Notes under the pieces: generated by a model
The model's input: the letters and a program-made list of their open reading frames with translations, nothing else
Told to the model about the DNA's origin: nothing
Database searches by the model: none
In this document: positions 2,239 to 61,026 of the stretch, in pieces
How the letters are laid out: each line of letters opens with the position of its first letter
Numbering within the stretch: position 1 is the first letter of the stretch
Translations under genes and position numbers: made by a program
Source of the DNA: Nitrospirota bacterium
GTDB taxonomy: Bacteria > Nitrospirota > JACRHJ01
Length of the DNA stretch: 64,000 nt
NCBI GenBank assembly: GCA_963733375.1
Contig: CAVTDB010000003.1
Location: 64,001 to 128,000 of the forward strand
Direction of reading: 5' to 3'

Positions 2239-2282
2239 TCTATAATGACGTATGATTTTACGGGTTATAAGAGAGGAAACCG

Positions 2283-2750
2283 ATGACAAGGAACGCTGAA
2301 TTAAAAAGGATACTGCTTGCGGACGACAACCCTAACGATGTCGAGCTGACGCTTGAGGCGCTCGAACAATATAACCTGGCAAACGAGGTCATGGTGGTAA
2401 AGGACGGGGCCGACGCGCTCGATTACCTTTACAGGCGCGGGGCGTACGATGAGCGCACGGGCGGCGATCCGGCGGTTATACTGCTGGACCTGAAGATGCC
2501 CAAAGTGGACGGGCTGGAGGTGCTTCGGCAGATAAAATCGGACCCGGCTCTTAAATGCGTCCCGGTCGTCGTCCTGACCTCCTCCCACGAGGAGAGGGAC
2601 CTGGTTGACAGCTACAACCTGGGCACGAACGCATACGTGGTAAAGCCCGTGGACTTCAAGGACTTCGTAGAGGCGATAAAGGGCCTGGGCTCCTTCTGGG
2701 CGGTATTGAACGAGCCTCCGGCGGGATGCGTCAGAAGAGAGAAAAGCTAA
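2283..2750 (+). CDS. Single-domain response regulator (Rcp1-like)
   Basis: ILLADDN, ILLDLKMPKVDG, VVVLTSS, NAYVVKP; typical partner of the upstream kinase type. Confidence 0.92.
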   Translation: MTRNAELKRILLADDNPNDVELTLEALEQYNLANEVMVVKDGADALDYLYRRGAYDERTGGDPAVILLDLKMPKVDGLEVLRQIKSDPALKCVPVVVLTSSHEERDLVDSYNLGTNAYVVKPVDFKDFVEAIKGLGSFWAVLNEPPAGCVRREKS

Positions 2751-2751
2751 A

Positions 2752-4353
2752 ATGGCACATAAGCATCAGCTTCGCATACTCCATCTGGAAGACAACCCGC
2801 TCGATGCCGAGCTGGTTGCCGCCGCGTTTGATACCGCCGGCCTGAAATGCGGGATAACCCGTGTCGAGACGGAGCAGGCATTCACCTCCGCCCTGGAATC
2901 AGGCGGCATGGATTTAATCCTGGCCGATTACTCCCTGCCTTCTTTCGACGGCGTTTCCGCCCTGAAACTCGCGCATGAAAAATGCCCGGACATACCTTAT
3001 ATCTTCGTTTCCGGCCAGATGGGCGAGGACATCGCCGTGGAGTCGCTTAAGCTGGGGGCGACGGATTATATCCTTAAGAACAACCTGAGCAGGCTAATGC
3101 CATCGGTGCGCCGCGCCCTAAATGAGGCGCTGGACAGGCGCGAGCGAAAGAAGGCGGAGGAAAAGACTGCCGCGGCGGAGAAGGCGCTCTGGGAATCGGA
3201 AGCGAGGATGCAGAAGCTGGAAAGCCTCAGAGCCCTTGCCGGGGGCATAGCCCACGACCTGAATAACCTGATGGTGGCCGTGGATGCGAACGCGGGGCTG
3301 GCGCTTAAGGCGTTAGCTCCCGACTCTCCCGCGCGCGAGCTGATAGAGGGCATCGAGAAGGCGGTCGCCAAGGTATCCACTTTCTCGAAGCAGATAATGA
3401 GCTTTACGGGAAAGTTCGAGGCGATGAAGGAGCCGGTCAGCTTGAACGAGGCTGTGGAGGACACGTCTCATTTCCTGCTCGCGTCCATTTCGAAGGACGC
3501 CGCACTTGAATTCCGCCTCTCGGACGGCCTTCCGGTCATCATGGCCGACCCGCAGAACATCCAGCAGGTGGTTATGAACCTGATTTTAAACGCCTCCGAC
3601 GCCCTTGAGAAAAGAAAAGGGAAGATCGAGGTCTGCACCGGGAAGCTCTTTGCTGAGCGTCCATACCTGGACTCGATGCACTTGGGGAAGGACCTGGCTG
3701 AGGGAGAGTATTTGTTCATAGAAGTCTCCGACAGCGGCTGCGGCATGGACGAAGAGACAAAGGGGCGGGTATTCGACCCGTTTTATACCACGAAGTTCAC
3801 GGGCCGCGGGCTTGGGCTCTCCGCCGTTTTCGGGATAGTAAAAGGGCATGGCGGGGCGATTGGCCTGACGAGCGCGAAGGGGCGCGGCACGAGTTTCAAG
3901 GTACTCCTTCCGATACCGGAAGAGCCTTTGCAGGCCGGAGTCGAAAAGCAGGAATCAAAGGACGTCTGGTCCGGGGGCGGGACTATACTTGTAGTGGACG
4001 ACGACGAAAGCGTCCGCATGCTTACCAAAAAAGTCCTGGAGACCGCAGGCTATAAAGTACTCACCGCCCCCGACGGACAGCAGGGGATTGAAATTTTCAG
4101 GCAGAGCGGCGAATCGATATCTTTAGTCCTGATAGACCTGATAATGCCGCAGATGCGGGGCGACGAAGCGGCAAAGGAGATGCGGAAATTAAAAGACGGT
4201 ATAAAAATTTTATTCCTCAGCGGGTATAGCGACCTCCAACTGGCGGACATGGCCGATGGGCCCGGTAAGGCGGCGATTATGATGAAGCCATACAAGGTGA
4301 CAAAGCTGCTTCAAAAAGTTCAGGAGGTCCTGGAGCAGAATGTCCGTCAATAG
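2752..4353 (+). CDS. Hybrid REC-HisKA-HATPase-REC histidine kinase
   Basis: N-terminal REC (LHLEDN, ILADYSLP), GGIAHDLNN H-box, FDPFYTTKFTGRGLGLS, C-terminal REC (LVVDDD, LIDLIMP). Confidence 0.92.
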   Translation: MAHKHQLRILHLEDNPLDAELVAAAFDTAGLKCGITRVETEQAFTSALESGGMDLILADYSLPSFDGVSALKLAHEKCPDIPYIFVSGQMGEDIAVESLKLGATDYILKNNLSRLMPSVRRALNEALDRRERKKAEEKTAAAEKALWESEARMQKLESLRALAGGIAHDLNNLMVAVDANAGLALKALAPDSPARELIEGIEKAVAKVSTFSKQIMSFTGKFEAMKEPVSLNEAVEDTSHFLLASISKDAALEFRLSDGLPVIMADPQNIQQVVMNLILNASDALEKRKGKIEVCTGKLFAERPYLDSMHLGKDLAEGEYLFIEVSDSGCGMDEETKGRVFDPFYTTKFTGRGLGLSAVFGIVKGHGGAIGLTSAKGRGTSFKVLLPIPEEPLQAGVEKQESKDVWSGGGTILVVDDDESVRMLTKKVLETAGYKVLTAPDGQQGIEIFRQSGESISLVLIDLIMPQMRGDEAAKEMRKLKDGIKILFLSGYSDLQLADMADGPGKAAIMMKPYKVTKLLQKVQEVLEQNVRQ

Positions 4354-4441
4354 GATTTTTTAGCCGACGGCATTAATCCCCGTAACGTCGAAACCATGCA
4401 CCAGCCCCCGTTCTCCTTGAACTTTTCTCATCCCGCGGGGT

Positions 4442-7400
4442 TCACTGCTTCTTTTTAAACAGGCTTTCATCCATCTTGACCCTCAGCCTGAAGTACGGCC
4501 CCTGCCCCCAATAGCTGTCCTGTTTCAGGTCCGCGTCGAACCGGTCGAAGGAGTATCCCAACGAGAACCAGAGGTTTTTTATCACCCTGTAGCCCACCTC
4601 GGCGGAACCGCCGTGCAGGAGCGAGCCGGCTTCCGCATTGTTCATCAGCCTGTACTCAAGCCCGACATCCACGCGGTCCGTCAGGTCGTAGAGCATACCC
4701 ACCCCCGCGAGTTGCGTATACGAGCTGATGCCGCCGTCGCCCGTCAGCTTGCCGGCATATTTACCGGTGAGCTGCAGTCTCCTGGAAGCCTGCATGCACC
4801 ACTCCGTCGATGTGATTAACGACAACGTCCTCAGGCTGTCGGTAAGTGAAGAGTTATCGTCGTACTTGTATTCCAGTTTTAAAAAGCCGTCCAGCCTGTC
4901 GTCATCGACCGGCCTGTAGGCTCCGCTCACGGAAGTGCGGTTAGTGGTACGTTTGCCGCCGGTGCCGATATCTTCCCTGCTGAAACGCTCCTGGAACAGA
5001 AGGGTCATCGATTGGGCCAGCCTGTACGCCGTGCCTTGTTCTATCAGGTAACTGTCGTTACCCGTGGCGGCAAGCTCGTGCCTGTACTCGACCCTTCCGG
5101 TCGCCTTCAGGTCTTCCCTGATCAGGTACTCGAGCCCGGCTGTGGCGGCTACGGCGTCCGCCTGGGACTGTATCTGGGGCCCGCTTAAGGTCCTTAAGTA
5201 TTCTACCGACGTACTCCCGTTCAGCTTATCGGTAAGCTTGAAGGTATTCTTCAGGCCTATGACCTGCTGGTTCCTGCTGCCGTCCGCCCCGTCGTCCAGG
5301 CGGTACTCGCTGTATCCGCTGACGCCCTTCATCAACTGCGTCTCCGCGCCGACGACGGTCCTGGCCTGGCCCTGTATTTCGGTCTTCAGGTATTCCTCGC
5401 GCACGTATAACTTGCTTATATCGCTCAGTTGATATTTCAGCCCGGCCGACGTTGTCAAAGTCCTTGCCGCTCACGATGTCCTGCTTGTGGGTGACGTCCA
5501 GGTCCAGCTTCGGGAAAAGCTGGGCACTCAATGTGATCCCAAGACCGGCGAACTTTTGCCAGACGTACGGACTGCTGTCGAACGGCAGGCGGCTGTTCGG
5601 GTCCGTGGGCGGGATGAACTTTGTATTGGAGGTCTCGCGCTCAAGCTCTAATGTGAGCTTGAACTTATTGAACTTCATCTCGGCCCCCAGGGAGACCAGG
5701 TTGTTGCTTGTCGCGTTAAGTTTGTCGTCGTCGCTGAAGGCCTTCATCCGGAAGACCACGCGCTCCCACGGCTCGTAACTCGCCTCCCCGCCGTACTTGG
5801 TCGCGCCACGGAAGACGTCGGTCGCGGAGGGGTTGTTGAAGCCGTCGTCGGCCTTGTGGTAGTAACCGGATATTTTAAAATCCTTAAAGGGAGTGGACAG
5901 GAGGTCCACCGCATAGGCCGAGCCCTGCCGCCTGGACAAGATGCCGTCTGTCGCCGCCATCATCGAATCCGTGCTGGCAAATTCCGCCTTCAGGTCTGTC
6001 TTGTACGGAAGCTTCAACTGCAAGTCCGCGCCTTCCAGGCGGTAATCCCCGCCGTCCTGTTCCTCCACGGCGCCGGTGACTCCGGCCTTGACCCAGGGAA
6101 GCGGACTCAATGTCGCGCGGCCTCCGTAGATATAGTGCTTCGCCCCGTCCTGTATGCTCTCGTATACCGCGATTATGTACACCGGGTTCAGGTCGGCGTC
6201 GTGGCTCGGGACCGGCGCCTTGAAGAGTATCGTGCCCATCTCGATGTCGAGATAATAATCGCTCCCGCGTGCAAGGGTCTGCCGGTCGAGTACGATATCC
6301 GGGCGCAGGCGGTCGCGCGTTTCTATGCTGATCTGCTCGGAGCCCTCGACTATCGGCGACTGGCTCAGGTAGTAGAACCCCGATATGCCGAGGCCCGGCA
6401 AGGCGTCAACGACCTGCGTCTGGTCCGTATAGCTCGCGAAGCCGCGCACCCTGAGCGAAGACATGGGGTTTATGTCGGCTTGAATCCCCGTAAGCGTCCG
6501 CTTATACGCGGCGAGCTTTACGTCGTCGAAACCGGTGTCGTAGTCTCCGTACAGCAGGTACGACCTGTCCTTCTCAAGCTTGACATATAACTTGTCGGCT
6601 GATTTTGCCTCGTACCCCAGCTTGCTCTCGTCGCCGTATATCTGGTATTTGTTGTCCGCCTGATAGTCCGTCGCCGCCGCGTTCTGCAGGTCCGGAGTTT
6701 TCTTCTTGCCCGAGTCGTACGCCGCCGTGACATATAGGTTGTCGAACAGGTTCCCCTTGAGGAAGAACGCGCCGCGCTCCTGCGAGAACGCGCCCTTGTC
6801 GAACCAGCCGTCCATGCTGAGCGGGCTGAACGCGCCTCCCGCGGAGCCGTAGCCCACCTTGATCTCGCCGACGCCCGCAATCATTACAGGACGCTTCGGC
6901 GGGGAGAAGAACACCTTGAACGTCTCGGTTATATCCTCGACGGAGACGCTGACCGTGGCCTCGCCACTCCCGCGGGGCGACAGGATGTCGAACTCGGCGC
7001 CCTTCTCGAAATACGGTATCTGCACGCCCCCCTGGGCCTGGTCCATGTCCTTCTGGACGACTTCTCCCCTGGTCGTCACGATGGTGATGAACGTGGACGG
7101 CCGCGCCGGTTGCCCCTTGGCGTCCCAGGCGGTGACGGTTACGTGGAGCTTCGACACTCCGTCGGCCGGGACGTCGCTCTCGTCCGGCTTGACCAGCAGT
7201 TTGGCCGGCTTGACGGGAGCCTCGACCGTTACCTCTTTTGTCTCCCGGATGTTCCCGAACGGGTCCTTGGTCTCGGCCTTGATGAGCGTCTTGCCGGTCT
7301 CGCCGACCTTGACCCCTATGTACTCGTATACCGTTACGTTATTTGCTTTGTCTACTATCGTCTCGCCGACCCTGTTATGGCCCACGGGCTCTCCGTTAAC

Positions 7401-9606
7401 AAAAAGGAGCGCTTCGCGGTCCGACGCCGCCTTCACGACCACCTTTACGGCGCCCTTCGTTATAACTTCGCCTTCTTTTGGAGACAGTATCTCAAGGGCG
7501 GTGGTGAAACCCTTTATCTGTTCAGCCATGCTTTCGTCCGCTTCGGGCTTGTCCGCCGCGGGGGCGGACCCGGCATTGTCATTTGTCCCGGCCCGTACCG
7601 CGTCCGCCGGCGCCGTAACTGCGAAATCCGCCCTGACCAGCCCGCTCGACTTCATGTCGATGAACTGCGAGCCGCCGTCGCCCATGGACCGGTTTGATGT
7701 CGGCACGAGCGCCGCGCCGCCGGGCAGGGACAACGTGTCTACCTTCAGGACGTGGGTGCCGGGGTCAACGTAGGGTATCGAGTACTTGCCGTCCTTGTCG
7801 GTTATCACCCTGGCTGCCATTCTCCAAGTAAAGGACCGCGCCGCCCAGGCCTTTCTCGCCCGCCTGCCGGAAACCGTCGCCGTTGCCGTCCAGGAACACC
7901 CTGCCTATTATCGTGCCTTTAGACGTGAATACGCCCTCGCTGATGGTCAGCTTGAACGATGCCCTCATGGATACGGAGGCGCCGGCGACGGCATAGGCGA
8001 CGTTAACGCCGTCGCCCTTCATGCTGTCCGGGCCGACGATGGCGCTGTAACGGAGCTCTACGGTTTTCCCCGCGGCCAGGTCGCCGATATGCCAGACGAG
8101 CGACTGGCCGTCCTGGCCCGGGTCCGCCGCCTTGACGCCGCCTATCAGTGTGGAGCCTTTGACATAGGGGACGTCATGCGGCATGCCGTCTCTGACCTGC
8201 ACGTCGTTTAGCGCGGTCTTGGCCGTTGTTAGTCACAGTGACCGTATAATGCACCACGTCGCCTATCGAGACAATGTTCTTGTCCGCCGTCTTGGTAATC
8301 CCCAGCGCTGTCCTGGGCGGGTCCACCGGTATGTCGAAGGTCACCGGGCTCATTCCGGCCGCCAGGGTAAAACTCTGGCCACGAGACCCGGCGCCAACCG
8401 TGTAGCCCGGCGGCAGCTTCGGCGTTGGCACTTTGGACGGGAATATGTAACTGCCGCCGGGCTCGACCTTGAGGCGGTAAGTCCCGGCATCCAGGTACTG
8501 GAACTGGAACTTCCCGTCTGCGCCTGTCGTGATCGGGTTTGACTGCGCCACAAGAAACGGCGTCAGGGGCAAGGCGGCCGGCAGGCCGGTACTTATCGTC
8601 TATGAGCGTCACGACCGCGCCCGCGACGGGCAGCCCGGTAGCCGTGTCGAAGACCGTGCCCAGAGGGTCCACGAACACATTGTCGTCATGTGAGGGGACG
8701 GCGTCGAGCGGGTCCGTGTATATAACCTCTATCGGCGTGTACGGCTGTATCGAGAGTATCCCGTCCCCTGTCAACGGGGGCCCGGAATTGGTCGGGAGGT
8801 TGCCTACGAACACGCCCGTGTTCGGGCCCGTTTCCTGGCACGTTACGGCCTCCTGGTCGTCAACGCTCCTGGAGCCGCCGGGCAGGACTGCGTAGTGGTA
8901 CACGGTGACGGTTATGGTGTCGATGGCCGCCGGGTCGATGTTTCGATCAGGGTCCGTCACTTTTATATATGAGATGTCGCCCAGGTTATAGCTGTAGACC
9001 CTGTTGTATGAGGAATCAGTAAAAATCACGACTCCCGGCGTCCGGGCCTTGACCGTCGTAGTCGCCGTCCGCGGTGCTGGCCGCGCCCTCGCTGCATGAG
9101 GCGTGCACGGTATCCGGTATGACAGTGTTGTTCGCCGCATGCTTGTCCACCGCCACCGTTAAATGCACGGTCGAGGAAGAGCCGGGAGCGAGGGCGCCAA
9201 CCGTCCACGCCACGGATCCGGAGGCGTATGCTCCACCAGAGTCCGCGCTGACAAAAGTCGTGCCCGACGGGAGCGTGTTCTTCAGAGTCACGGCGGAGAG
9301 CGGGTCACTGCCCGGGTTGCTGGCGTTGATGGTGTATTCTATGTTATCGCCGGCCCATACCACGTCCGCCGCCGATATTACTACATTTATGACGGGGGCG
9401 GTTACCGTCAGGCTGGCACTCGCGCCCTCCTGAGGCATGGCGACGTTCTTTTGCGTCTGGTAATCGCAGGTCGCGTTATTGACCACTTGAGCGGCTCGGG
9501 CCGGGGATGCGGCAAATGCCCACATGGAGGCGCAGGCGAATAACAGGAGGACGAAAATGCCCGCCTGCCGCCTTAAACTCTCCTGATATGCAGTTATTGC
9601 CGCCAT
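4442..9606 (-). CDS. Large secreted DUF11/SdrD-B/Ig-domain protein with C-terminal outer-membrane beta-barrel (about 1700 aa; split by about 5 frameshifts)
   Basis: Consecutive overlapping ORFs 9016..9606, 8229..9140, 8174..8572, 7765..8202, 5226..7820, 4442..5458. Signal peptide ending ARA, DUF11 motifs (GDNIEYTINASN; ITKTAD..GDVVHYTVTVTNNG), SdrD-B-like IIGRVFLDGNGDG..ITDKDGKYS, and an aromatic-rich amphipathic beta-strand C-terminal half ending YFRLRVKMDE. Confidence 0.8.
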
Positions 9607-9654
9607 TCTTCCTTTACCGCTGGTCCATTAGCCGTTCCCGCGGCAGTCAGCGAA

Positions 9655-10917
9655 TCAGTTGACTGTCGCGTCGAACGTCACTGCGGCAGTGGCGCCCGCG
9701 GCGATCGAGTTGATATTGACCTGTATAAGACTTCCGGCGGGGTTGGGCTGCGTGAGTCCGTTCAGCTTTAATGTCCCCGCCTTGTATGTGACAGGCAGTG
9801 CGTTTAAATCATCTTTTATGACGACGTTCCCCGCCGCGTCATTACCCGCATTCCGCGCGGTGATGGTATATGTAACGGTATCTCCGGGTTTGGCCGAGGC
9901 CGGGCTTACGGCCTTGGTAGTGCTTATCGCCGGCGAGAGGACGGTAATACTTACCGGCGCCGAATCAACCGGCGAAGCGCCGTCCGCGGCGGCTTCCGCC
10001 ACGTTGCTGGCGCCCGCTCCGCTCAGGCTGACCGCCTGGGCGTGGTTCGATGGCCTGTTGATATTGACGCTGAACACCAAAGTCGCGGTCGCGTTCGGGC
10101 CGAGAGTCCCGACGGGCGCCGTGATGACGTTACCGGACAGCAGGCTGTCGTTCTGCGCCACTGTGTTCAGCTTGATTGAGCCGCTTACGAACGTCGATAT
10201 CCCGAGGACGCTTCCTATGTTGTCGGTGACGGTGACGTTCGTCACGTCGGATGTCCCGGCGTTTCTTACCGTAATCGTGTAAGTAACGGCATCGCCGGGC
10301 GTGGGGTTGTTATTGCTTACCGACTTCGTTATCGTCAGTACCGACCCGCCGACTGTCGTCTGAGACTCCGGGGATACGCCAAGGACGGAAGTATTGCTGG
10401 TGGATGTGGCCCTGGCGTCGTCGTTTGAGCGCGTGTTTGCCGCCGCGCTCCCGGGTATGGGCAGCTTCATATACACCAGCATGGACCCGCCCGCGGCGAT
10501 AGGCCCGATCGGCGCGGTAATCAAAGACGACGCGCCCGGGTCGGAAAAGAACTGGACGGCGCCGGGGTTGAACGTGGATGCGCCCGCGTCGTGATCAGAT
10601 GACAGGGTGAACGAATCGGCGGCGTTGCCGGTGTTGGTTACCGTTACCGTATAAACCACGGATGCCCCGGCTGACCCGGAAAGCGTGGCCGGAGCAATCA
10701 GGACGCTCGCGCCCTGCTTTTGCAGTATGGTGACGTCTACCGACGCCGACACCAGCGGCATCGGGTTGCCGCCGCTGTCCCCGTAACTGACGTTGGCGGT
10801 GTTAACCAATGGCCCTGGCGGGGCGACCGCGGCCATCGCCGGGCAATAGCCCAGAAGCGTGGCCGTGAAGGCGGCCGCCAGTACCGTTAAAAGTTTCCTG
10901 ACTATTCTATTGCCCAT
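9655..10917 (-). CDS. Secreted DUF11-domain protein, 420 aa (putative minor/shaft fibre subunit)
   Basis: Signal peptide, N-terminal LVNTANVSY...SASVDVTI segment, Ig-like domain, one complete DUF11 domain and a C-terminal truncated DUF11 ending VTFDATVN. Confidence 0.85.
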   Translation of the reverse strand: MGNRIVRKLLTVLAAAFTATLLGYCPAMAAVAPPGPLVNTANVSYGDSGGNPMPLVSASVDVTILQKQGASVLIAPATLSGSAGASVVYTVTVTNTGNAADSFTLSSDHDAGASTFNPGAVQFFSDPGASSLITAPIGPIAAGGSMLVYMKLPIPGSAAANTRSNDDARATSTSNTSVLGVSPESQTTVGGSVLTITKSVSNNNPTPGDAVTYTITVRNAGTSDVTNVTVTDNIGSVLGISTFVSGSIKLNTVAQNDSLLSGNVITAPVGTLGPNATATLVFSVNINRPSNHAQAVSLSGAGASNVAEAAADGASPVDSAPVSITVLSPAISTTKAVSPASAKPGDTVTYTITARNAGNDAAGNVVIKDDLNALPVTYKAGTLKLNGLTQPNPAGSLIQVNINSIAAGATAAVTFDATVN

Positions 10918-10951
10918 AAAAGCTCGGATTTGCCTCGTGCTCGGAATAGAT

Positions 10952-10987
10952 AAGCCGGCCGGCGGCCCTTGGGCCGCCGACCGGCTT
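10952..10987 (-). terminator. Strong GC hairpin just downstream of the 440-aa subunit gene (mRNA stabiliser or partial terminator)
   Basis: aagccggccggcggccc-tt-gggccgccgaccggctt: 17-bp arms with one non-Watson-Crick position (G-U in the minus-strand transcript); only a weak U-tract. Confidence 0.65.
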
Positions 10988-10997
10988 CCGACTCGAC

Positions 10998-12320
10998 TTA
11001 GTTCGCGTTTACCGTTACTCTGTAGAAGAACTCCGCTTTGCCGGTCAAGGCAGGAAGTGTGCCTCCGGTCACATTTCCGGATACGACGCCGGCAGCAAAA
11101 GTAGGCGCGCAGTTAAGCGGGTTTATAAATGGTACGCTATCCGCTCCCGCGCCATCAGACGCTTGCAATATTTTGCCGAACGTCACGAAGCCCGACAGCG
11201 TATCGGCGATAACCACTGCGTTTGCGACGTCGTGCCCGTTGTTGGTCACCGTAACGTGGTAGTTGATCGTGCCGTTGGGGAGGGCGGAGGACACGTCGGC
11301 GGTTTTCGTCACTGCCAGCAAAGGCGCGTCGACTGTCACCACAACTGCGGGCGTGTCAAACTGCGGCTCCGGAGTCGTATCGGTGCCGGACTTGTAATTG
11401 ATGGACGCGACGTTAGATAATGTCGTACCGTCCACTATTCCCGGGGTCGTGTTTTTGATCTTGCCGGTTATGGTGATGTCGGTCTCGCCATTAGTCGAGC
11501 CGGCCTTGGCAGCCACCGTTTGAGCGCTGGACGTGAATACGTTGCCGGAAAACGTCCCATAGGTGCTGGCGAGCGTGTCGATGTCGGCGGGAATCGTGTC
11601 CGTTACGACCACGCCGGTAGCGCCTACCGTGCCCGAGTTGATGAGCTTTATGGTGTAGGTGATGGCCTGGTTAGCCTTGTAGTGCAGTCCGGCCTGGTCC
11701 ACCCCCTTGGTAGAGCCGGTGAGGTTGGCCGAGTCGGTGGTCGTGGTCAGCGTGGTGGTATCGAAGACCGGGGCGACCGTTCCGCCCGTCGCGTCCTTCG
11801 TGTTGGTGGTGGACGTGGCTTTAATGGCTTCCGTGTTGCTCGTCGGGGCTACGGCGTCCGGGATAACGATATGCACCCAAATCTTCTGACTCCCGCCCGC
11901 CGCGATCACGTCCGTGGTGGAGCCTGCAAGGACTGTGGACGTTTCGGTGCCGCTTCCGTTGTCACGGTAGAACGTAAACGTAGTCGGGGTCCATGCGCCA
12001 CCCGAGGTATTGGACATAGTGAAGCTGTCCGACGCGTTACCGACGTTATTGACAGTTACCGCGTAGTCCACCGTGCCCAGGTTGTTGCTGAGTATCGTGG
12101 ACGGGGACGGGGTGAGGGTCACGCCGTAGAGATAGGTCACGGACACGGTAACCGAGGCGGTCACCGGAGTCATGGCGTTGGCATTTACGTCATTGTAAGT
12201 CGCTGAAACTGTATTCGTGATATTACGGCTGAAGGTCGCGGTTGCCGCGAAGGCGTTGCCTATGGCGAATAACGCCATTATGCAGGCGATGGACAGAGTG
12301 ATCGAAATCTTCTTAAACAT
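10998..12320 (-). CDS. Secreted DUF11-domain protein, 440 aa (putative major fibre subunit)
   Basis: Signal peptide ending AFA, strong RBS (AAAAAAGGAGA), N-terminal ITNTVSATY...TASVTVSV, one complete and one C-terminally truncated DUF11 ending FFYRVTVNAN. Confidence 0.85.
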   Translation of the reverse strand: MFKKISITLSIACIMALFAIGNAFAATATFSRNITNTVSATYNDVNANAMTPVTASVTVSVTYLYGVTLTPSPSTILSNNLGTVDYAVTVNNVGNASDSFTMSNTSGGAWTPTTFTFYRDNGSGTETSTVLAGSTTDVIAAGGSQKIWVHIVIPDAVAPTSNTEAIKATSTTNTKDATGGTVAPVFDTTTLTTTTDSANLTGSTKGVDQAGLHYKANQAITYTIKLINSGTVGATGVVVTDTIPADIDTLASTYGTFSGNVFTSSAQTVAAKAGSTNGETDITITGKIKNTTPGIVDGTTLSNVASINYKSGTDTTPEPQFDTPAVVVTVDAPLLAVTKTADVSSALPNGTINYHVTVTNNGHDVANAVVIADTLSGFVTFGKILQASDGAGADSVPFINPLNCAPTFAAGVVSGNVTGGTLPALTGKAEFFYRVTVNAN

Positions 12321-12404
12321 GATTTTCTCCTTTTTTCTGTTGAACTTCGGTTAACTCGTTTTAAACCAAAAAACTAACCCAATCCTGATGTGTCACCTCC
12401 TTTA

Positions 12405-12924
12405 CTACTTAACCTTTACTTTGAAATTTACATGCCCGGACTCGCCGGGCTGGACATCCTTCTTTACGGTCCACTGAACCTGCGTGTACGCCTCGGCCGG
12501 GGCGGCCTTTTCCACAACCTTGCCGGACTTATCCTTCTGCTTGACCATCACCGGCGGCTTTTGGTACGTCTTGCCGCCGTCAACGCTGAATGCTATCTCG
12601 GTATTGCCGCCTTCAGCGCTCCCAGGCACGTATGCCGTGTTCTCCGGGACAGGGTCGATTATCTTCGCGTCCCTGGCAACGCTTTGACCCTCGTTTTTAT
12701 ACGTTATGGAATACACTACGGTGTCGCCCGCAACGACCTTCCCGGCGGGCACCAACGTTACGACCTCCTTGCCGTTCTTGCTTGTCTTCACCTCCTTTGC
12801 CATAGAAATAGTGAGTTTCAACTTTGGCCCCTGAGCGGCCGCCCAGGCGGATATGCCCGTTAACATGAATACCGCGGCGACTGACCAATATCGCCGCCTT
12901 TACCGTTCTGCCTGAAATACTCAT
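12405..12924 (-). CDS. Small basic single-DUF11 secreted protein (putative chaperone/assembly factor); frameshift within the signal peptide
   Basis: ORF 12405..12866 (AGDTVVYSITYKNEG, IIDPVPENTAYVPGSA, FSVDGGKTY, VNFKVKVK) plus likely start at 12924 (MSISGRT) behind a GGAGGGG RBS. Confidence 0.8.
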
Positions 12925-13071
12925 TTCATCCCCTCCATTGTTATGATTGTCATCACTAAAGCCCGCCTATGCCCGTTTTCTGCTTTCGGGCCTCCCCGGC
13001 ATGCGTCACGCGGTTTGTGCAGTACCGTCTTTTCAGGTTTGACTATAAATATCATTTGTCGCCTCCCTCCG

Positions 13072-16000
13072 TCAGTTAGGGTTGATAGTTACTTGTAAAT
13101 AGACTTTGCCCTCGCCGCCCGGCGCCAGGGTGCCGCTAACGATGAACACCGCGCTACCCCCGGACAGGTTGTCCGAGACCGGCGTTGCGGTGGCGTAGGT
13201 CGAGCTTGCGTTCCCGGCCCTCATGCTCCCGGTAACATACGACGTGTAGGTAGGGATATTGTCGGTTATGATTATTAAAGCGGCGTCGCCCGTGCCGTCG
13301 TTTTTGTAGTCTACCGTGTACGTAAGCGTGTCACCCGGTTTGGGCGTGGGCTTGTCTACCGTTTTTGTCAGCGTTATGTGCGGGTTCGTTACCGTAACCC
13401 CCGCAGTGCCGCCGGTGGATTGGACGGGGTATCCGGTCGGCGTGAACGATGCGTTATTGAGATACGTGCCGGATGCCGCAGCCGCCGTGGACTGGAAATT
13501 AAGCGTCAATGCGCCGGTCGCGGGAAGCGTCCATGAGCCGCTCCAGGTAATCGTTCCGGTCGTACCGGCAGGGTTGGCCGTCGTCATGCCCGTGGTCGTG
13601 CCCGTCCGGTATGAGAACCCGGCGGGGAGCGTGTCCGTGACGCTTGTGACCGGTATGCTCAAAGGTCCTGTGTTCGTCATGGTGATCGTGTAGCTTACCG
13701 TCCCTGCCGCCGTGGTAGTGGACGGGGACGCGCTTTTGGTTATGCCGAGCGCAAAAACGGTCACGGGCGCGGTGTCTCCGGTGGGGTAAGTCGTCTGCCC
13801 GCTAACCGTCCATGTAGCGTTATTGTAATATGTGCCCGTTGTCGGGCCTGCATATGCGTGGAAGACGAGCGTCAGCGAGCCGCCGTTCCTGCCGATAGCC
13901 CAGTTCCCGCTCCACGTAAGCACCTGGCCGGCCACGGCCGGGTTGTTAGTCGTCGTGCCCGTGGTCGAACCGCTTATGTAAGAGAACCCGGCCGGCAGCG
14001 TATCTACAACTCTTGTGACGGTCCTGTTGTTCCCGCTGTTGTTTGTCATCGTGATGGTATAGACCACCTCTCCGCCGGGCAGTACCGCCGAAGGGCTGAC
14101 GGTCTTGTTTATGTCATAGGTGGAGACGATGACCGGCGCCGTATTGGAGATAGTCTGCACCCCGCAGCCCGTCGCCGTGAATGTCGCAGTGGGGTTGTTA
14201 TACGTACCGTTCGTGTTGTTCACGGTGACATCGAAATTGAGCGTTAAGGTGCCGTTGGCGGGCAGAGTCCAGGAGCCGTTCCATGTAAGCGTTCCGGTCG
14301 TCCCGGTCGGGTTGTTCGTCGTCATGCCGTCGGTCGTGCCGCTGACATACGTGAAATTGCCTCCGGTCGAGTTGAGCGTATCCGTCACCCGTGTGACGGG
14401 TATGTCAGACGGGCCTGTGTTTGACAGCGTAATCGTGTAGGTTACCGTCCCGGCGTGGGCGACCTCGCCCGGAGCCACCGTCTCGGATATGCCCAGGTGG
14501 AAGACCGTAACAGGCGCGGTATCCCCGGTTGACTGGACCGGATAGCCGGTCGGGGTGAAAGAAGCGTTGTTGTTATACGTGCCATCCGTACCGCTCGCCG
14601 TGGCGGAGAAGTTAAGCGTCAGCGTGCCGCCGTTCGCGGGCAGCGTCCATGAACCGTTCCATGTAAGCGCCTGGCCGGCCACGGCCGGGTTGGCGGTCGT
14701 CATGCCGGTGGTCGTGCCCGCATTGTAGGAGAACCCCGCCGGGAGCGTATCCGTTACGCTTGTGACCGGTATCGACGCGCTGCTCGGGTTTGTCATCGTG
14801 ATGGTATAGGATGCGGTCCCGCCGGCAATGACCGAGGCTGAGGCCGCGGTCTTGGCTATGTTTAAATGAAAAACCGTAACGGGGGCGGTCGGGCCCGTGG
14901 TAGTGTCCGGATATCCGGTGGCGGAAAACGACGCGTTGTTGTTATACGTGCCGTCGGTAGAGCTCGCCGCGGACTGGAAGTTGAGCGTGAGGGTTCCGTT
15001 CGCGGGCAGCGTCCAGCTTCCGTTCCACGTGAGCGTCTGCCCGGCCACGGCCGGGTTGGCCGTCGTCATGCCGGTCGTCGTGCCCGTCTTGTATGAAAAG
15101 CCCGCCGGGAGGGTATCTACCACGCTTGTAACTGTCGTGGCGGAGCCGCTGTAGCTGGTCAGGGTCATCGTATAGCCTACGGTACCGCCCGCTATGACCG
15201 CTGACTGGCTCGCGGTCTTTGCCATTTTTAGGGTAAATACGCTGACAGGCGCGGTCGGTCCTGTGGAGGTGCTGGGGTATCCGGTGGCTGCGTAAGATGC
15301 GGTGTTGGTGAAAGTCCCCACGGACGAGCCCGCGGCGGACTGGAAGTTGAGCGTGAGGGTGCCGTTCGCGGGCAGCGTCCAGCTTCCGTTCCACGTGAGC
15401 GTCTGTCCGGCCACGGCCGGGTTGGCCGTCGTCATGCCGGTAGTCGTGCCCGTCTTGTAGGAAAAGCCCGCCGGGAGGGTATCTACCACGCTTGTGACAG
15501 TTGTGGCGGAACTGCTGACGCTGGTCATTGTAACCGTGTATGTTACCGTCCCGCCGGTCTGGACAGTGGACGGGGTTACCGTCTTAGCCGCCGAGAGGTT
15601 AAGTATCGCGTCGGTATCCGTGGCGGTGTTGTTTGTCAGGACCGGGTCCGTAGTGTTGTACGGGGGATTGACCGTGACGGAATTCACGATTGTCGGGCTG
15701 CCTCCCTGTACGGTCCCTTGCAGCGTCAGCACCGCACTCTGCCCGGAGGCGAGGTTGATCCCGCTCCAGTACTGCGTCGTGCCGTTGTATATGCCCCTGT
15801 CCGGGCTGAAGACCGGGCTCTGGAGGTTTGCCGGGATTGTGTCCCTTACCCAGCAGCTCGATATGCTGCTCGGCCCGTTGTTGGTGACTGTTATGATATA
15901 GGTGGCCGCGCTTCCGGGCAGAGCCGTCGTCTGGTTGTCGGTCATTGCGATTGACAGGTCCGCCTGGGGGGTGAGGGCGTCGCTGTCAGTGGCCGCGTTG

Positions 16001-18297
16001 TTCGCTGAATTGGTGTCCGTAATTCCCGGCGGCGGCGTTACGGTCGCGGTAACAGAGAGCGTCCCCGTGGCCGCCGGGTCTATGGTACCCGCAATGGTAA
16101 GGGTAACGTGCTGCCCTGACGCGAGGCTCAGGCCGGTCCACGCGCCGGTGCCCGAGTTGTACGCCCCGGTCGAAGCCGTATATAAAGGGGACTGTACCGA
16201 AGTTGGCAGGGGAACACTCAGCGTAAGGCTCGTAACGGCGCCCGGCCCGTTGTTGGTGACCGTGACGGTATAGCTGTCGGCGTTGCCTGGTATGATGCTC
16301 GTCACGCCGTCCGTTATTGCTACGCCGAGGTCCGCGTTGACGGGAGATGTGCTTCCGATTGCCTGCACGGAAGGGTCCGTCCCGGCGGTGCCGTTGGGAT
16401 AGATGGTGGCCGTGTTGGTTATCGGCAGGGAGGCGGTCGGGCACGTCGATTTGAAAACGACCGTGACCGTATCGCCGGCATTGACCACGCCCGATGCCCT
16501 GCCCGGGCCGTTTATCAGCCGGCCCGGGGTCGAAAAAGGCATGTTCCCGCCCACGTCGGCGACGGCGCCGCCGTTCATTTTCGTGGACCCGGCTACATAT
16601 GCCGTGCCGGCGGGTATGCCGTCAAGAAGCCACGACCCGGCAGTGTTCGTCAGGCCGGTATTTGAAGCCGTTATGGTCCATGTGATAGTCGCCGTGCCGC
16701 CGACGGTGCTCACGCTCGCGGTCTTGGCGGTATCGAGCCTGTCTACCAGCGTCGCGGTCGTGTAGTTGGAGGTCGTGGTAGCCTGGAGAGGAGCTGACAG
16801 AGCAGTTGGTTAAAAAATTGTACGTCCAGCTCGAATTGGTGACATAAGACGCAGCCGCGGGCGAGGGCGGCACCGCATTAACCGCTGCCTGGTACTGGAC
16901 CCACAACTGGGCGCCCACGGCGATGCCGCCGATATTGAAGCCGGCGGATGGGTTTGCGCCGGACAATGTGGTATAGGTGACGCCGTCCGTGCTGGTTTTC
17001 GCGGTCCCAGGGATGAACGATGTATACGGCGGCGGGACTGATGTATATATCACGTTTTGCGCGCTTGTCGAGCCGGCGGTGTTGTCGAGCCTTGTAGTGT
17101 ATGTCAGGGTATCGCCCACATGGGTCGTTGTCTTGTCGACGGTCATGACGGTTGTGGGGAAAGTTGGCGCGCCGACGTCCACCTGTATTCCGATGGAGCT
17201 TATGGTGTACGCGTCCTGGTTTGAAGTACCCTGGGCGCTGGCCTCGGTCTGACCGTGCTGGAGTATGCCGGAGACGTCAACGTTTGTTATGTCCCAGCCA
17301 TGACGCGTCCCATTTGTGGCCGCGCCGCTGCCAGTGGTGGTGGTAGGTGTGTCGTTCAGGCTGCCGAACGTCCCGGACGTATCGACGGTGCCGTTGTCCT
17401 TGTTTATCTGGCTTGCGAAGAAGTTGCTCGCAAGGTTGTTCGGTCCGGATACCGGCTGCATGGCGCCGACCGGCCCGAAAAGCATCTGGTCGCCAGCGAT
17501 GAACGAGTCGCCCTCCATGGCGCTTACCATCAGGCGGGCGTTTATAGTGCCGGCGCTGTTCACGCAGAAGCCGCTCACCGCGTATCGCGGAGGAGTACCC
17601 GCTCGCCGCGTGAACTCGCAGCCGACGAATACAGACATGCTCCTTATCGGCAGGGTGGTGTTCCTGTAGACCACCGCGAGCGTCCAGCCCGCGCAGTTGC
17701 TGTTGTTTTCATTCGGGTCGCTCGTCGCTGGGACGCCGCCCACGGTGTATGTCCCGGCGCCGGCTGACTGCACGTAGGCGGTCACGTCCGCCGAAGCCGA
17801 CATAGTAGTATTGGCCTCCGGTATCCCCGGTACGTCTTTTGCCGTCGCGGCATCAGGCGCGACTGAATAAGTGCCGGAGGGTGTCGCCATCGTTACGCTG
17901 CTGTCCAGCGACGACGACACGTTCTGGTTTGCGGTCTGCATAACAGCCGCCCCAGATAAGCTCGGCGTAAAGGATGGTGCTCCCCGCCGGTATGTTGAGC
18001 TGCGCTGCTGACGAGTTCTGGGACCACGTGAGTGTCGTCCCGGCCGGATAATGTGCCGACCTGTGAAGAAGGGTTGGTGGTTATGAATGCGCCTATGGCG
18101 CCCGCCGCTCCAGGGTTGTTCTGGTTCGCTATCTTGTCGAGACCGAGCGTGTTGCCGGTAAAGGTCATTGCGCCCGTGTCGACCGCCGTGAAACGCGTGA
18201 TATATGAGGCATGCGCCGGGACCGCGAGACAAAGGACCGCCATCGCCGCAAAGCATATCGCCGTAATGGCCGTGACTAAAACTTTTGACTTTCGCAT
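13072..18297 (-). CDS. Giant Thr/Gly-rich DUF11-repeat adhesin (about 1740 aa, about 11 DUF11-like domains; frameshifted)
   Basis: ORFs 17893..18297 (signal peptide ending AHA, then YITRFT..GAMTFTGNTLGL), 16622..18256 and 13072..16713 with repeated xKT..GGTVxYTITMTN..VxDTLPAGFSY..W..TLNF..NxA; last domain truncated at VYLQVTINPN. Confidence 0.85.
14500..15610 (-). repeat. Near-identical tandem DUF11-coding repeats inside the adhesin (period about 366 bp)
   Basis: gactggaagttgagcgtgagggt occurs at 14972 and 15338; protein repeat DTLPAGFSYxxGTTTGMTTANPAVAGQxLTWNGSWTLPANG. Confidence 0.85.
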
Positions 18298-18308
18298 ACT
18301 TTTAATCT

Positions 18309-18530
18309 CTATACGCAGGAGTTAAACCGCTTGATCCGGTCGTCCAGCCAGAACTCTTCCGCCTGTGCCAGACGTGCAAAGTCCAGCGACCCTACGATAT
18401 GGCGTTCCGCATCGGTTAAGTCATACCCCTCTTCGATGCAGACCGCGTCCAATTCACGTGAAGCCCTTTCACGAAAACTAGCATCGGTAACAAGGCGCCC
18501 GATGAACTGCTCTACTGCTTTTTGAGACAT
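18309..18530 (-). CDS. Small NHLP-clan (Os1348/Franean1_4349-like) protein, 73 aa
   Basis: MSQKAVEQFIGRLVTDASFR...GYDLTDAE matches my recollection of the family pattern (IGRxxTDxxFR..GYxLTxxE); GAGG RBS; first gene after the sigma54 promoter. Confidence 0.7.
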   Translation of the reverse strand: MSQKAVEQFIGRLVTDASFRERASRELDAVCIEEGYDLTDAERHIVGSLDFARLAQAEEFWLDDRIKRFNSCV

Positions 18531-18604
18531 GGCGATTTTCCTCGGTTAAATTAAACAGCTAATGATTATTAGATTAGAAACGTTATTCCTAGTACATTAA
18601 TATT

Positions 18605-18620
18605 AGCAAGAGTCGTGCCA
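18605..18620 (-). promoter_or_regulatory. Sigma54 (RpoN) -24/-12 promoter driving the DUF11 operon
   Basis: Minus strand reads TGGCAC-GACTC-TTGCT, an exact match to TGGCAC-N5-TTGCW, 75 bp upstream of the ATG at 18530. Confidence 0.9.
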
Positions 18621-18637
18621 AAAAAAAATACCTTGAA

Positions 18638-18650
18638 ATTCAAATAGTTA
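18638..18650. promoter_or_regulatory. Candidate IHF site between enhancer and sigma54 promoter
   Basis: ATTCAAATAGTTA, one mismatch to WATCAANNNNTTR, in an AT-rich context. Confidence 0.45.
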
Positions 18651-18673
18651 TTATAAAAGCAGATGACGTGGCC

Positions 18674-18827
18674 TGGCCCATTCAGGGCCAATGATTTCTC
18701 GATGTACGCCTTGACGATGCCCGATTAGGTGCGAGAGGAGCGGAATTAAAGGAAATTTCTCTGAAAAATTAGATAGTTGACTATGGGGGGAACTAACGGC
18801 GGAAAGGTTTTGGCCCAAATTGGGCCA
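18674..18827. promoter_or_regulatory. Two copies of a 17-bp palindrome TGGCCCA-N3-WGGGCCA (candidate bEBP upstream activating sites)
   Basis: tggcccattcagggcca at 18674..18690 and tggcccaaattgggcca at 18811..18827, both upstream of the sigma54 promoter. Confidence 0.55.
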
Positions 18828-18847
18828 TAATCCCAAATCTTCAGGTC

Positions 18848-20236
18848 CTAATTATCTTTTTCCATTGACGTTTTTTTCCGGTTGAACATCTTCCGGTTAA
18901 TCTTCAGACGCTGTGCGGCAAGCGACTTGTTGCCGTCGCAGCTTTTCAGCGTCTCCTCCAAAACCCGGTTTACCACGGCTTCGAGAGAAAGCTCGCCTTC
19001 ATTAAATTTGAGATGGAAGTCCACGCCGCCATCCGATGCGGCCTTGTTGTCTTTATAAATTACGAGGTGCTCCGGGCGGACCAGTTCTCCGTTTACAAGG
19101 ATAGCGGCCCGCTCCAGACAGTTTCGCAGTTCCCGTATATTTCCGGGCCAATCATATGCCATGATCACTTCCATGGCCTTGCGGGATATTCCGGGAAGGT
19201 CCTTTCCCTGGTGTTGGCGGAATTGGGGCAAAAATTGCTCCACGAATAACAGGATGTCTTCCTTCCGTTCTCTGAGAGGCGGGATAACGATGGGGAAGAC
19301 ATTCAACCGGTGGAACAGGTCTTCCCTGAATTTTCCCTGCCGGACAAGGGCTTCAAGGTCCCGGTGGGTTGCCGCGATTACGCGGAAGCCAACCGGCAGC
19401 AGCCGGTCGGAGCCGATTTTATAATAGACGCGCTCCTCAAGGACCCTGAGGAGCTTGACCTGGAGGGGAAGCGGCATGTCGCCTATCTCGTCTAACAGCA
19501 TGGTGCCGCCATCGGCCAGCGCGAACTTGCCGTCCCTGTCCCTGTCGGCCCCGGTGAAGGCTCCCCTGACATGGCCGAAAAGCTCGCTTTCCAGGAGGGT
19601 TTCGGGGACCGCCGCGCAATTGACCGCCACGAAATTGGACGGCATGCCGCCGCTCGCAAAATGGATGTCCCGCGCCAGGACCTCCTTTCCAACTCCGCTT
19701 TCGCCGTAGATGGCAACGGTGGTACGCGGCGAGGCCGCCACCATTTCAGCGGCTTTCAACGCCTCGCTCATAGCCGGGGAATGGGTCATTATAGACTGGA
19801 AAAGGTGGCGGCTTACCACATATTCCTTGAACTTCTTATTCGAGCTGTTCTCTATCGTCAGACGGCCAAATTCCAGCGCCCGTTTTATTACCACGTCCAG
19901 TTCGTCGCGGGAAGCAATCCTTTTTCAGGTAATCGAATGCGCCGCTCTTCATGGCTTTGACGGCTGTCTCCACGTCGCCCTGGGCGGTAAAGATAATAAA
20001 CGGCGTATCGGATCCTTTTTCGCCCGTAAAACGCGAGCAGCTCCAGTCCGTCCATCCCCGGCATAACGAGGTCGGAGATAATAAGCTGGTAAGGCTATCC
20101 TTCTCCAAGGAGTGCAATTGCTTTTTCCGCGGAGCGCGCCAGGGTAATCTCGTACCCAAGGTCACTCAACTGGCTCTTCAATAATCTGGCGCTGGCTGGC
20201 GTTGTCTTCCACGATGAGGATGCGGGCGGCGGTCAT
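18848..20236 (-). CDS. Sigma54-dependent response regulator (NtrC family REC-AAA+-HTH); frameshifted REC domain
   Basis: Start MTAARILIVEDN at 20236; GESGVGKE Walker A, ESELFGHVRGAFTGA, LLDEIGDM, WPGNIRELRN, C-terminal Fis-type HTH GNKSLAAQRLKI. Confidence 0.92.
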
Positions 20237-60800: not shown

Positions 60801-61026
60801 CTATGACATGCAGTCTCAGCGCCGGGATCGATGAGGTTTCCACGCCGCCGTCGCGTGCTACTATAGCCCCCACATCGACATATGAAAGCCCGGCAACCGT
60901 TTTTACTATTAAAGAGGTTTTCGGGGGGTCTGGAGGATCGGCGGCCCATCCGGCAGGAAGATAAGATAGAAAGAACAAAATGGATAATAACGGCAGTACT
61001 ACAATTAGCCTCTTGAACAGGCCCAT
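54840..61026 (-). CDS. Giant secreted S8 subtilase fused to MBG-like and InlB-B-like repeat stalk (about 2060 aa; frameshift near 57390)
   Basis: Signal peptide; catalytic triad ILDTGVD, NGHGTSLAG, SGTSASAA; MBG-like KSKTYGDSDP / LSQTYDGTAK..PTAAGSY repeats; C-terminal ITATAGANGNISP..GYHVDTLTVDG..HTIxVTF repeats. Confidence 0.9.
54845..56545 (-). repeat. About 4 near-identical 435-bp tandem repeats (145 aa, two-domain unit)
   Basis: tgRggcgtggttacattaatgaacg at 54871, 55306, 55741 and 56176. Confidence 0.92.
57130..59260 (-). repeat. About 4.5 near-identical 444-450-bp tandem repeats (MBG-like two-domain unit)
   Basis: gcccgaagc anchor at 57481, 57931, 58378 and 58822. Confidence 0.9.

Follow-up and report, generated by a model that had tools for sequence, protein, structure and literature searches.

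The DNA analysed here is a stretch of 64,000 nucleotides from a Nitrospirota bacterium (assembly GCA_963733375.1, contig CAVTDB010000003.1, positions 64,001 to 128,000 of the forward strand), referred to below as the window. The source metagenome-assembled genome (MAG) consists of 26 contigs and has a completeness of 81%. The window contains a minus-strand operon, from about 18620 to 4442, whose products are predicted to build a surface fibre from split domains. After a 73-amino-acid (aa) open reading frame (ORF), the gene order is adhesin, P0003, P0002, P0001 and a very long anchor gene. A preliminary description of this DNA had proposed that autocatalytic Lys-Asn isopeptide bonds join such proteins from chain to chain.

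The operon proteins belong to the DUF11 family (PF01345). Bit scores were 98.7 for P0001, 53.2 for P0002, 31.2 for P0003, 365.8 for P0004 (the adhesin) and 60.9 for P0006 (an anchor segment), with a cut-off of 24.6, and all five also exceeded the cut-off of 24 for TIGR01451. A 2025 survey (PMC12617251) gave DUF11 the new name CLIPPER. In the accessible part of that survey, a CLIPPER structure at 1.77 Å (PDB 9IFR) contains a Lys715-Asn806 isopeptide beside Asp748, and in CnaA-like folds the bond links the first and penultimate strands. The same part states that some DUF11 domains lack the isopeptide residues, and handles DUF11 solely as an intramolecular domain of adhesin stalks. The Cna-type Lys-Asn chemistry named in the preliminary description therefore holds insofar as the family has a solved Lys-Asp-Asn isopeptide; the precise type is CnaA-like CLIPPER/DUF11. 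A PDB sequence search with P0001 and P0004 returned no relevant match, and 9IFR was not among the matches, so residues were mapped through family profiles.

Below, a C-terminal domain that stops before the Asn-bearing penultimate strand is called an acceptor, and an N-terminal peptide resembling the missing strands a donor. The gene for the putative tip adhesin (P0004) lies at 13072–18321 on the minus strand, as do all operon features described here. Its product starts with a signal peptide and about 500 aa of N-terminal sequence assigned to no family, followed by ten DUF11 stretches (4.5e-111), which comprise at least nine complete repeats and a terminal truncated domain; no N-terminal donor was found. 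A hidden Markov model (HMM) of 122 positions was built from eight complete internal repeats of this adhesin. The C-terminal acceptor (13075–13395; K1117, D1151) matched positions 2-103 of this HMM, and the match stopped three residues before the C-terminus, which reads ...LQVTINPN. The acceptor contains PHITLTKTV in its first strand and the Asp motif IITDNIP.

P0003 (12405–12866; DUF11, 2.9e-07) is a small acceptor-only protein with a single truncated DUF11 domain, K24, D71 and no donor. Translation probably begins further upstream, in a different frame (12697-12924). Orthologues of 163-202 aa with signal peptides were found in 14 other loci.

Two pilin genes follow, both uninterrupted as ORF translations. 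Pilin A (P0002, 440 aa, 10998–12320), a member of the pilin alignment described below, carries a donor at residues 26-63 (12132–12245; Asn36; donor HMM E 4.5e-15). Its terminal acceptor (11001–11336; K339, D373; motifs PLLAVTKTA and VIADTLS) matched positions 1-101 of an acceptor HMM and left a two-residue tail. Pilin B (P0001, 420 aa, 9655–10917) was modelled by AlphaFold2 with a mean predicted local distance difference test (pLDDT) score of 87.9. Its donor, residues 30-66 (10720–10830; Asn39; donor HMM E 2e-19), forms two strands in that model, at 35-43 and 56-64. The middle of pilin B is a complete internal CLIPPER domain (9958–10347) with the triad K198/D232/N305, matched by the TIGR04226 'isopeptide-forming domain' at 47.1 bits with a cut-off of 30. 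The terminal acceptor of pilin B (9658–9945; K335, D369; motifs PAISTTKAV and VIKDDLN) matched acceptor HMM positions 1-101 with no tail. The codons of the three key residues lie at 10801-10803 (N39), 9913-9915 (K335) and 9811-9813 (D369). Lys, Asp and Asn thus stand together in the internal domain of the pilins and not in the terminal domains. A Foldseek search with the whole pilin model returned generic tandem Ig-like proteins (integrin legs, antigen I/II C123, PrgB) and was uninformative on the split.

All sequence motifs that the preliminary description quoted for its acceptors, P-x5-K and Asp, are present on the minus strand in P0004, P0002 and P0001. It had counted three acceptors with Lys; these three do keep K and D, and the total is four, P0003 having been missed, as were the position of the third donor on the large anchor and the frame breaks described below.

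Further pilin-like proteins were also observed. Locus L035 encodes three tandem mini-pilins (11825-13960, plus strand) of about 213 aa each, composed of a donor (A-T-N-T-A...) and, immediately after it, a single truncated domain; the mini-pilin is the minimal form of the subunit. P0282 (353 aa) carries both a donor and a terminal acceptor, and its database label is 'hypothetical protein [Novosphingobium sp.]'; by this label, the subunit type extends to Alphaproteobacteria.

The last gene of the operon (4442–9606) encodes a donor-bearing protein of about 1700 aa, predicted to be an outer-membrane anchor. It is split into six frame segments here and is intact in relatives, where it has 1607-1814 aa. 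The order in relatives is signal peptide, donor, DUF11, CarboxypepD_reg, SdrD_B, Invasin_D3/Big_1 and about 800 residues without any family. The donor of the anchor is at P0006 residues 38-69 (9400–9495; donor HMM E 1.4e-4), with Asn43 at 9478-9480. The C-terminal region (4445–6821) is a predicted beta-barrel, with barrel profile matches at 5412-6821 and 4445-5458. The corresponding region of the anchor from the related genome G001 was modelled as all-beta with about 30 long strands. Foldseek matches to it were all large outer-membrane barrels (LptD, SlpA, TonB-dependent receptors, MtrB, SprA and FimD) with template-modelling (TM) scores of at most 0.25, the FimD match being weak (rank 34, TM 0.20). 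Weak Pfam matches to BBP2 and OmpA_membrane were found on the last anchor fragment.

The barrel family was detected in 56 of 301 sampled Nitrospirota genomes, including 41 of 64 in one family. Therefore, the barrel family is not a curiosity of a single MAG. A search for related loci with the barrel, in which narrow peptide patterns were used, gave five loci in genomes and five in metagenomes. In locus L033, from another Nitrospirota family, the anchor (13885-19986, plus strand) has an OmpA-like peptidoglycan-binding domain at residues 833-941, which separates the surface domains from the barrel. This observation bears on the topology of the anchor and on how the fibre would be tied to the cell wall.

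The truncation of the terminal domains was analysed with the complete-repeat HMM. In P0001, P0002, P0004 and their orthologues from four related genomes, matches of the terminal domains started at position 2-3 and stopped at 90-103 of 122, on reaching the protein C-terminus or no more than a few residues short of it. P0003 is a fourth protein whose C-terminal domain halts before the Asn-bearing penultimate strand. The donors are peptides of about 35 residues directly after the signal peptide, with their Asn in an I-x-N-x-A motif. When compared by hhalign, an alignment of 48 donors covered the final 33 of the 130 columns in the complete-repeat profile, with the Asn positions of the two coinciding (P 0.044).

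A stronger test, the adjacency of donor and acceptor matches within proteins, was used in place of the complete-repeat HMM on the short donors. Among 141 proteins (those of the window, of its relatives and of a database search), 27 of 32 internal donor-HMM matches started 1-11 residues after an acceptor-HMM match (two overlapped), where the acceptor match had to reach position 85 or later of 101. Because the two HMMs are adjacent inside complete domains, acceptor plus donor equals one complete domain. In the split proteins, the donor-like part is, by this sequence comparison, moved to the N-terminus.

The distribution of the parts within the operon was also considered. The adhesin and P0003 each carry an acceptor but lack a donor; the anchor carries a donor but lacks a truncated domain. 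Since acceptor-only and donor-only proteins occur in one operon, complementation in trans is required, and we regard strand complementation in trans as quite likely. The placement of Lys/Asp and Asn on different chains, as first suggested in the preliminary description, agrees with these results: the terminal domains lack the Asn strand, which is found on the N-termini of other chains.

A complex of the pilin B acceptor (P0001 325-420) and donor (P0001 30-66) was then predicted. The interaction prediction score from aligned errors (ipSAE) was 0.89, 0.88 and 0.89 in three runs, and the best of three controls reached 0.01. Of 80 solved complexes, 58 attained the ipSAE mark, as did 2 of 110 mismatched pairs; these reference counts hold only roughly here because a custom alignment was used. 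Contacts agreed to at least 99% among the three runs, and the pLDDT of the partner was at least 91. In the complex, donor residues 39-48 are paired with acceptor residues 362-369, D369 contacts N39, and K335 contacts donor residues 58 and 60. The docking, as modelled, matches CnaA topology. Sequence and predicted complex both point to donor-strand complementation, at the level of prediction.

These results suggest the following mechanism. The fibre would consist of CLIPPER/DUF11 (CnaA-like) beta-sandwich domains, with one domain shared by two chains at every junction. The adhesin, P0003 and both pilins would act as acceptors, their last domain stopping before the Asn-bearing penultimate strand, and the N-termini of both pilins and the anchor would supply exactly the two missing strands. 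Each donor would enter the unfinished domain of its neighbour on the distal side by donor-strand complementation and complete the fold of that domain. The donor Asn would thereby be set beside the first-strand Lys and the catalytic Asp of the acceptor, and an autocatalytic Lys-Asn isopeptide would then lock the joint. The predicted polarity places the adhesin or P0003 at the tip, the pilins as the shaft and the donor-only anchor at the base, kept in the outer membrane by its large C-terminal beta-barrel. Because each pilin has a complete internal domain with its own triad, the stalk would have cross-links inside its subunits in addition to those that join one subunit to the next. Export would possibly proceed via the anchor's own barrel. 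Truncation, donor homology, conservation, synteny and docking are supported computationally, and from them we infer the covalent bond, the donor-acceptor pairing, the order of assembly and the passage of subunits over the outer membrane. The full mechanism with its covalent Lys-Asn lock is favoured with moderate confidence, and all parts of the preliminary interpretation that are open to computational testing agreed with it.

The conservation of the three residues was analysed at several scales. In an alignment of 11 pilins (30-84% identity to P0001, mean column identity 47%), 26 of the 420 P0001 positions were invariant; among them are N39 of the donor, K335 and D369 of the acceptor, and all three residues of the internal triad K198/D232/N305. 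When a database was searched with this alignment under a length restriction, 154 matches were obtained, of which 120 were listed. An exhaustive search with the pilin profile gave 65118 matches; each of the 150 listed was a giant DUF11 protein with many repeats (1962-7723 aa), and no pilins were discerned among them.

An N-terminal donor was present in 52 of the 141 proteins, and its Asn was present in 52/52 (51 by alignment, one by eye), including N36, N39 and N43 of the window. Of these 52 proteins, 43 were flagged as having terminal acceptors, four more had one by eye, four were anchors or anchor fragments, and P0203 was unclear. The aligned acceptors read K and D, with P0030 (described below) as the exception; in 12 the alignment starts past the Lys, and all seven inspected among these had it. 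Donor-less proteins of the set mostly finish in complete domains and sorting tails.

Further Nitrospirota were then included. Fourteen regions were taken and ten were counted; L027 was left out as cut at a contig end, L036 for a masked stretch, and L039 and L040 as members of a different subfamily with a partial barrel-profile match and no donor on the anchor. In the ten loci, the donor Asn was present in 28/29, with one Ser. The invariance of the donor Asn stated in the preliminary description is thus upheld in the first set and nearly so in the second. The pilin and adhesin acceptors of these loci had Asp in 24/24 and Lys in 18 by alignment and five by eye, with one ambiguous. As far as the sequences go, this pattern shows retention of the triad residues where an inter-chain junction would be expected.

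Several observations weigh against the mechanism with a covalent lock. Among the 25 contact pairs listed for the complex, D369-N39 was present and K335-N39 was absent, so the proximity of Lys, Asn and Asp for which the preliminary description had looked to predicted complexes was seen in part. The score of the complex may also stem in part from complete Ig-like domains already familiar to the model. Matches of the mature N-termini of P0001, P0002 and the anchor to the end of the complete-repeat HMM were weak (per-domain E 1-2), and the P value of the hhalign alignment is a weak statistic. Across DUF11 in general, no positions are more conserved than K, D and N, so their conservation is partly expected anyway. 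The model of the G001 anchor region is poor (pLDDT 60, predicted TM score 0.39), and no chaperone or secretion component was identified among the operon proteins. A 399-aa pilin of L033 (9474-10673, plus strand) has a donor Ser in place of Asn, while Lys and Asp are both retained in its acceptor; either a joint that is naturally non-covalent or an error of sequencing could account for the Ser. P0030, a metagenomic protein of 254 aa that is possibly a fragment, has a terminal truncated acceptor without Lys and Asp, no N-terminal donor and no signal peptide. Finally, the window locus has at least eight frame changes, and probably a ninth at the start of P0003.

The strongest alternative keeps the strand complementation and drops the covalent lock. 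Lys, Asp and Asn would then form a buried hydrogen-bond network, and the fibre would be held by strand insertion as in chaperone-usher, type V and TasA fibres. Truncation, donor homology and docking need no bond, and the Ser donor of L033 and the acceptor of P0030 are natural examples without the residues. The small acceptor-only proteins also often lack Lys and Asp: in 15 loci, Asp was present in 9/15, Lys in 7/15 and both in 6/15. P0003 itself keeps Lys and Asp, and one or both were lost in 9/15 of the set that includes its orthologues (L013-L016, L021, L025, L029-L034, L037 and L038), with Asp often replaced by Asn. However, the residues are lost freely away from the junctions, as in the Asp missing from 6/15 of the small proteins and the Lys missing from 3/8 complete adhesin repeats, and they are kept at the junctions in the counts given above. 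Furthermore, an identical triad forms a real bond in a complete domain, according to the accessible part of the survey (PMC12617251). We consider the alternative without a lock unlikely.

The Lys-less repeats are those already pointed out in the preliminary description (ADLGVAITD, ADLSIAMTD and LGISETV), and they correspond to adhesin repeats 1, 2 and 6 of the eight aligned. Because these repeats and many small acceptors lack triad residues, the fold is independent of them, and the earlier remark that the Lys is dispensable for the fold is borne out. Since the bond-forming residues are lost in many lineages, the small acceptor-only protein, judged by its sequence, may be a reversible donor-strand chaperone or cap and not a covalent partner.

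A second alternative is closure in cis, in which the N-terminal strands of a pilin complete its own C-terminal domain, perhaps with an intramolecular isopeptide, to give a stapled monomer and no fibre. The donor region is modelled as beta in the AlphaFold2 monomer of P0001 (pLDDT 73-80), and self-complemented states are known in other strand-exchange pilins. However, the acceptor-only adhesin and P0003 and the donor-only anchor do not fit with it, and their arrangement is conserved across loci. The donor is also joined to the first domain of the pilin by about five residues, like the tandem domains of a continuous stalk, and with so short a link a three-domain ring would be sterically awkward. 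Closure in cis is therefore improbable, and complementation between chains is retained as the preferred reading.

The gene order supporting complementation between chains recurs in G001, G002, G006, G008, a Lentisphaerae MAG (L021), the metagenome contig L025 and the ten further Nitrospirota loci. The frame breaks of the window were mapped with these relatives. The adhesin has three frame changes and four segments by tblastn with the intact G001 orthologue, near 18054, 17920 and 16760, and the anchor has five relative to intact orthologues. No homopolymer runs of five or more were found at the break sites, and the breaks are not explained in this way. When contigs of four public metagenome runs were compared with 4400-9700, all ten indel rows fell at the five anchor frame changes, and each omitted one base. 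These places are near 5455, 7815, 8222, 8592 and 9070; the omission was seen in three runs at the first two places and in two runs at each of the remaining three. Another two runs cover 9068-9071 and are without the change, via short, diverging contigs. Because the public contigs lack one base at each site, the anchor breaks are most likely single-base insertions of this assembly, with the gene intact in related populations and not a pseudogene. The many frame breaks of the locus might suggest that a single giant DUF11 adhesin has been divided, through errors of assembly or wrongly called genes, into what look like pilins. This is scarcely credible, as the donors follow a signal peptide and a real gap (P0002 stop at 10998, P0001 start at 10917), both pilin genes are free of breaks, and the boundaries are repeated in independent assemblies, from other genera and from a second phylum, as well as in some 50 database proteins (325-768 aa).

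The predicted system was compared with known domains and fibres. It shares with the CLIPPER/DUF11 structure 9IFR the Pfam family, the CnaA-like fold and the triad of first-strand Lys, Asp and penultimate-strand Asn, and the internal domain of the pilins is an ordinary complete member. In contrast, the terminal domains of the operon proteins lack the Asn strand and the last strand, both of which would come from the N-terminus of another protein, and the cross-link would be intermolecular.

Chaperone-usher pili (type 1 and P pili) are likewise built from incomplete Ig-like subunits completed by the next N-terminal extension, with a donor-less tip adhesin and a terminating basal subunit. However, the operon would donate two strands instead of one, a covalent lock is predicted, and the terminator is fused to a predicted outer-membrane barrel. 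No PapD-like chaperone or FimD/PapC-like usher family was found by Pfam and NCBIfam in the operon proteins of the window, L016, L015 and L033.

Sortase-assembled Gram-positive pili and SpyTag/SpyCatcher pairs are joined via Lys isopeptides in Cna-type domains, and SpyTag/SpyCatcher was made by artificially dividing a Cna domain into a strand and the remainder. Unlike in sortase pili, the bond of the operon proteins would run from side chain to side chain and not from Lys to a C-terminal Thr. Unlike in SpyTag/SpyCatcher, the split is natural and CnaA-like instead of CnaB, and the tag would comprise two strands of about 35 residues. No LPXTG-type signal was found in the operon proteins: P0001 (...TFDATVN), P0002 (...RVTVNAN) and the adhesin (...QVTINPN) end on the last strand of the truncated domain. 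No sortase family was found among the operon proteins, to which this search was limited, the rest of the genome not having been searched. The sortase independence proposed in the preliminary description is consistent with this lack of any sortase signal in the operon proteins.

The closest likenesses were found in BsaA of C. perfringens and in archaeal threads. In the accessible part of the report on BsaA (bioRxiv 10.1101/2024.11.04.621531), this protein has a TasA-like fold, Asn35 of its donor strand is proposed to bond with Lys74 under catalysis by Glu56, and oligomers are lost in mutants. As in the operon system, an N-terminal donor strand with Asn enters the neighbour, and an autocatalytic Lys-Asn bond with an acidic catalyst ('exchange and lock') is proposed without a sortase. 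However, BsaA as described there is TasA-like and uses Glu and one donor strand, whereas the operon proteins are CnaA-like and would use Asp and two strands. The BsaA host is Gram-positive, with SipW processing and type IV pilus-linked secretion, whereas the operon belongs to a diderm with a dedicated, predicted outer-membrane anchor. BsaA also has mutational support, whereas the operon system is known from computation alone. No TasA, camelysin or SipW family was found among the Pfam and NCBIfam matches of the operon proteins, whose fold is tandem Ig-like. The operon system is alike in mechanism to the TasA/BsaA fibres and is not a member of them.

In archaeal threads, Asn57 is linked to the N-terminal amine of subunit n+2, according to the accessible part of the report (PMC9715654). 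The thread subunit Saci_0406 described there shares donor-strand complementation and an inter-subunit isopeptide without chaperone or usher, but it has no Pfam domain and comes from an archaeon with no outer membrane (PMC9715654). The accessible part of a 2026 review mentions intermolecular isopeptides solely for sortase pili. Nothing on a split DUF11/CLIPPER domain, a DUF11 pilus or an isopeptide-linked diderm pilus was found in the literature covered, which leaves out most subscription journals and supplements. A paper on Tat-fimbriae was considered as a DUF11 precedent and rejected, its matches being to the irrelevant DUF1102. The principle is already known, and the fold, host type and anchor are new.

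We tentatively propose, at a little less than an even chance, that these loci represent an undescribed class of diderm pili ('split-CLIPPER') that recurs across Nitrospirota and extends to Lentisphaerota at least. Such pili would combine a two-strand exchange free of chaperone, usher and sortase, a self-sealing isopeptide, a fused barrel root that is perhaps the export pore, a small acceptor-only domain that may be a reversible chaperone or cap, and several perhaps orthogonal Tag/Catcher pairs. Should the bond form, outer-membrane bacteria would have their first example of a pilus that is polymerised covalently and independently of sortase. A tandem-repeat adhesin would have become a polymer through a gene cut inside a domain, with the boundary turned into a self-sealing joint, and a pilus would be assembled without a chaperone-usher pair or protease. 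The donors of about 35 residues and the acceptors of about 95 residues are candidate natural CnaA-like Tag/Catcher pairs, several per operon and perhaps mutually specific. The proposal raises the questions of whether subunits would pass the outer membrane folded or unfolded, and what role the small acceptor-only protein would have.

The surroundings of the operon were also analysed. A gene for a sigma-54-dependent transcriptional activator (18848–19894, minus strand; Pfam Sigma54_activat 8.5e-64, AAA_lid_14 and HTH_8) lies directly 5' of the operon and likewise upstream in the relatives L013-L016. Between this gene and the operon, a perfect sigma-54 promoter consensus (TGGCAC-N5-TTGC) was found at 18606–18620 on the minus strand. 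The window holds two perfect matches to this consensus, the other (60476-60490) lying within a gene. Sites with up to two mismatches numbered 44, with 62.6 expected by chance. Because this relaxed-match number is below chance, the promoter site counts only by its position and perfection.

The 73-aa ORF (18309–18530, minus strand), which sits between the sigma-54 promoter and the adhesin, resembles Nif11/Frankia-type ribosomal peptide precursors. Its match to PF14407 scored 45.3 bits with a cut-off of 48, and its Nif11 match of 20.5 was also below the cut-off.

Adjoining the 3' end of the operon on the opposite strand, genes for a PAS histidine kinase, a response regulator and a hybrid kinase occupy 586-4353. 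A second large surface protein is encoded at 54840-61026 on the minus strand. Its N-terminal part is subtilisin-like, and the remainder consists of many repeats with a period of 435 nt, each about 145 aa long. The coding region is apparently split between two ORFs that overlap at 57187-57332, perhaps through another frame error.

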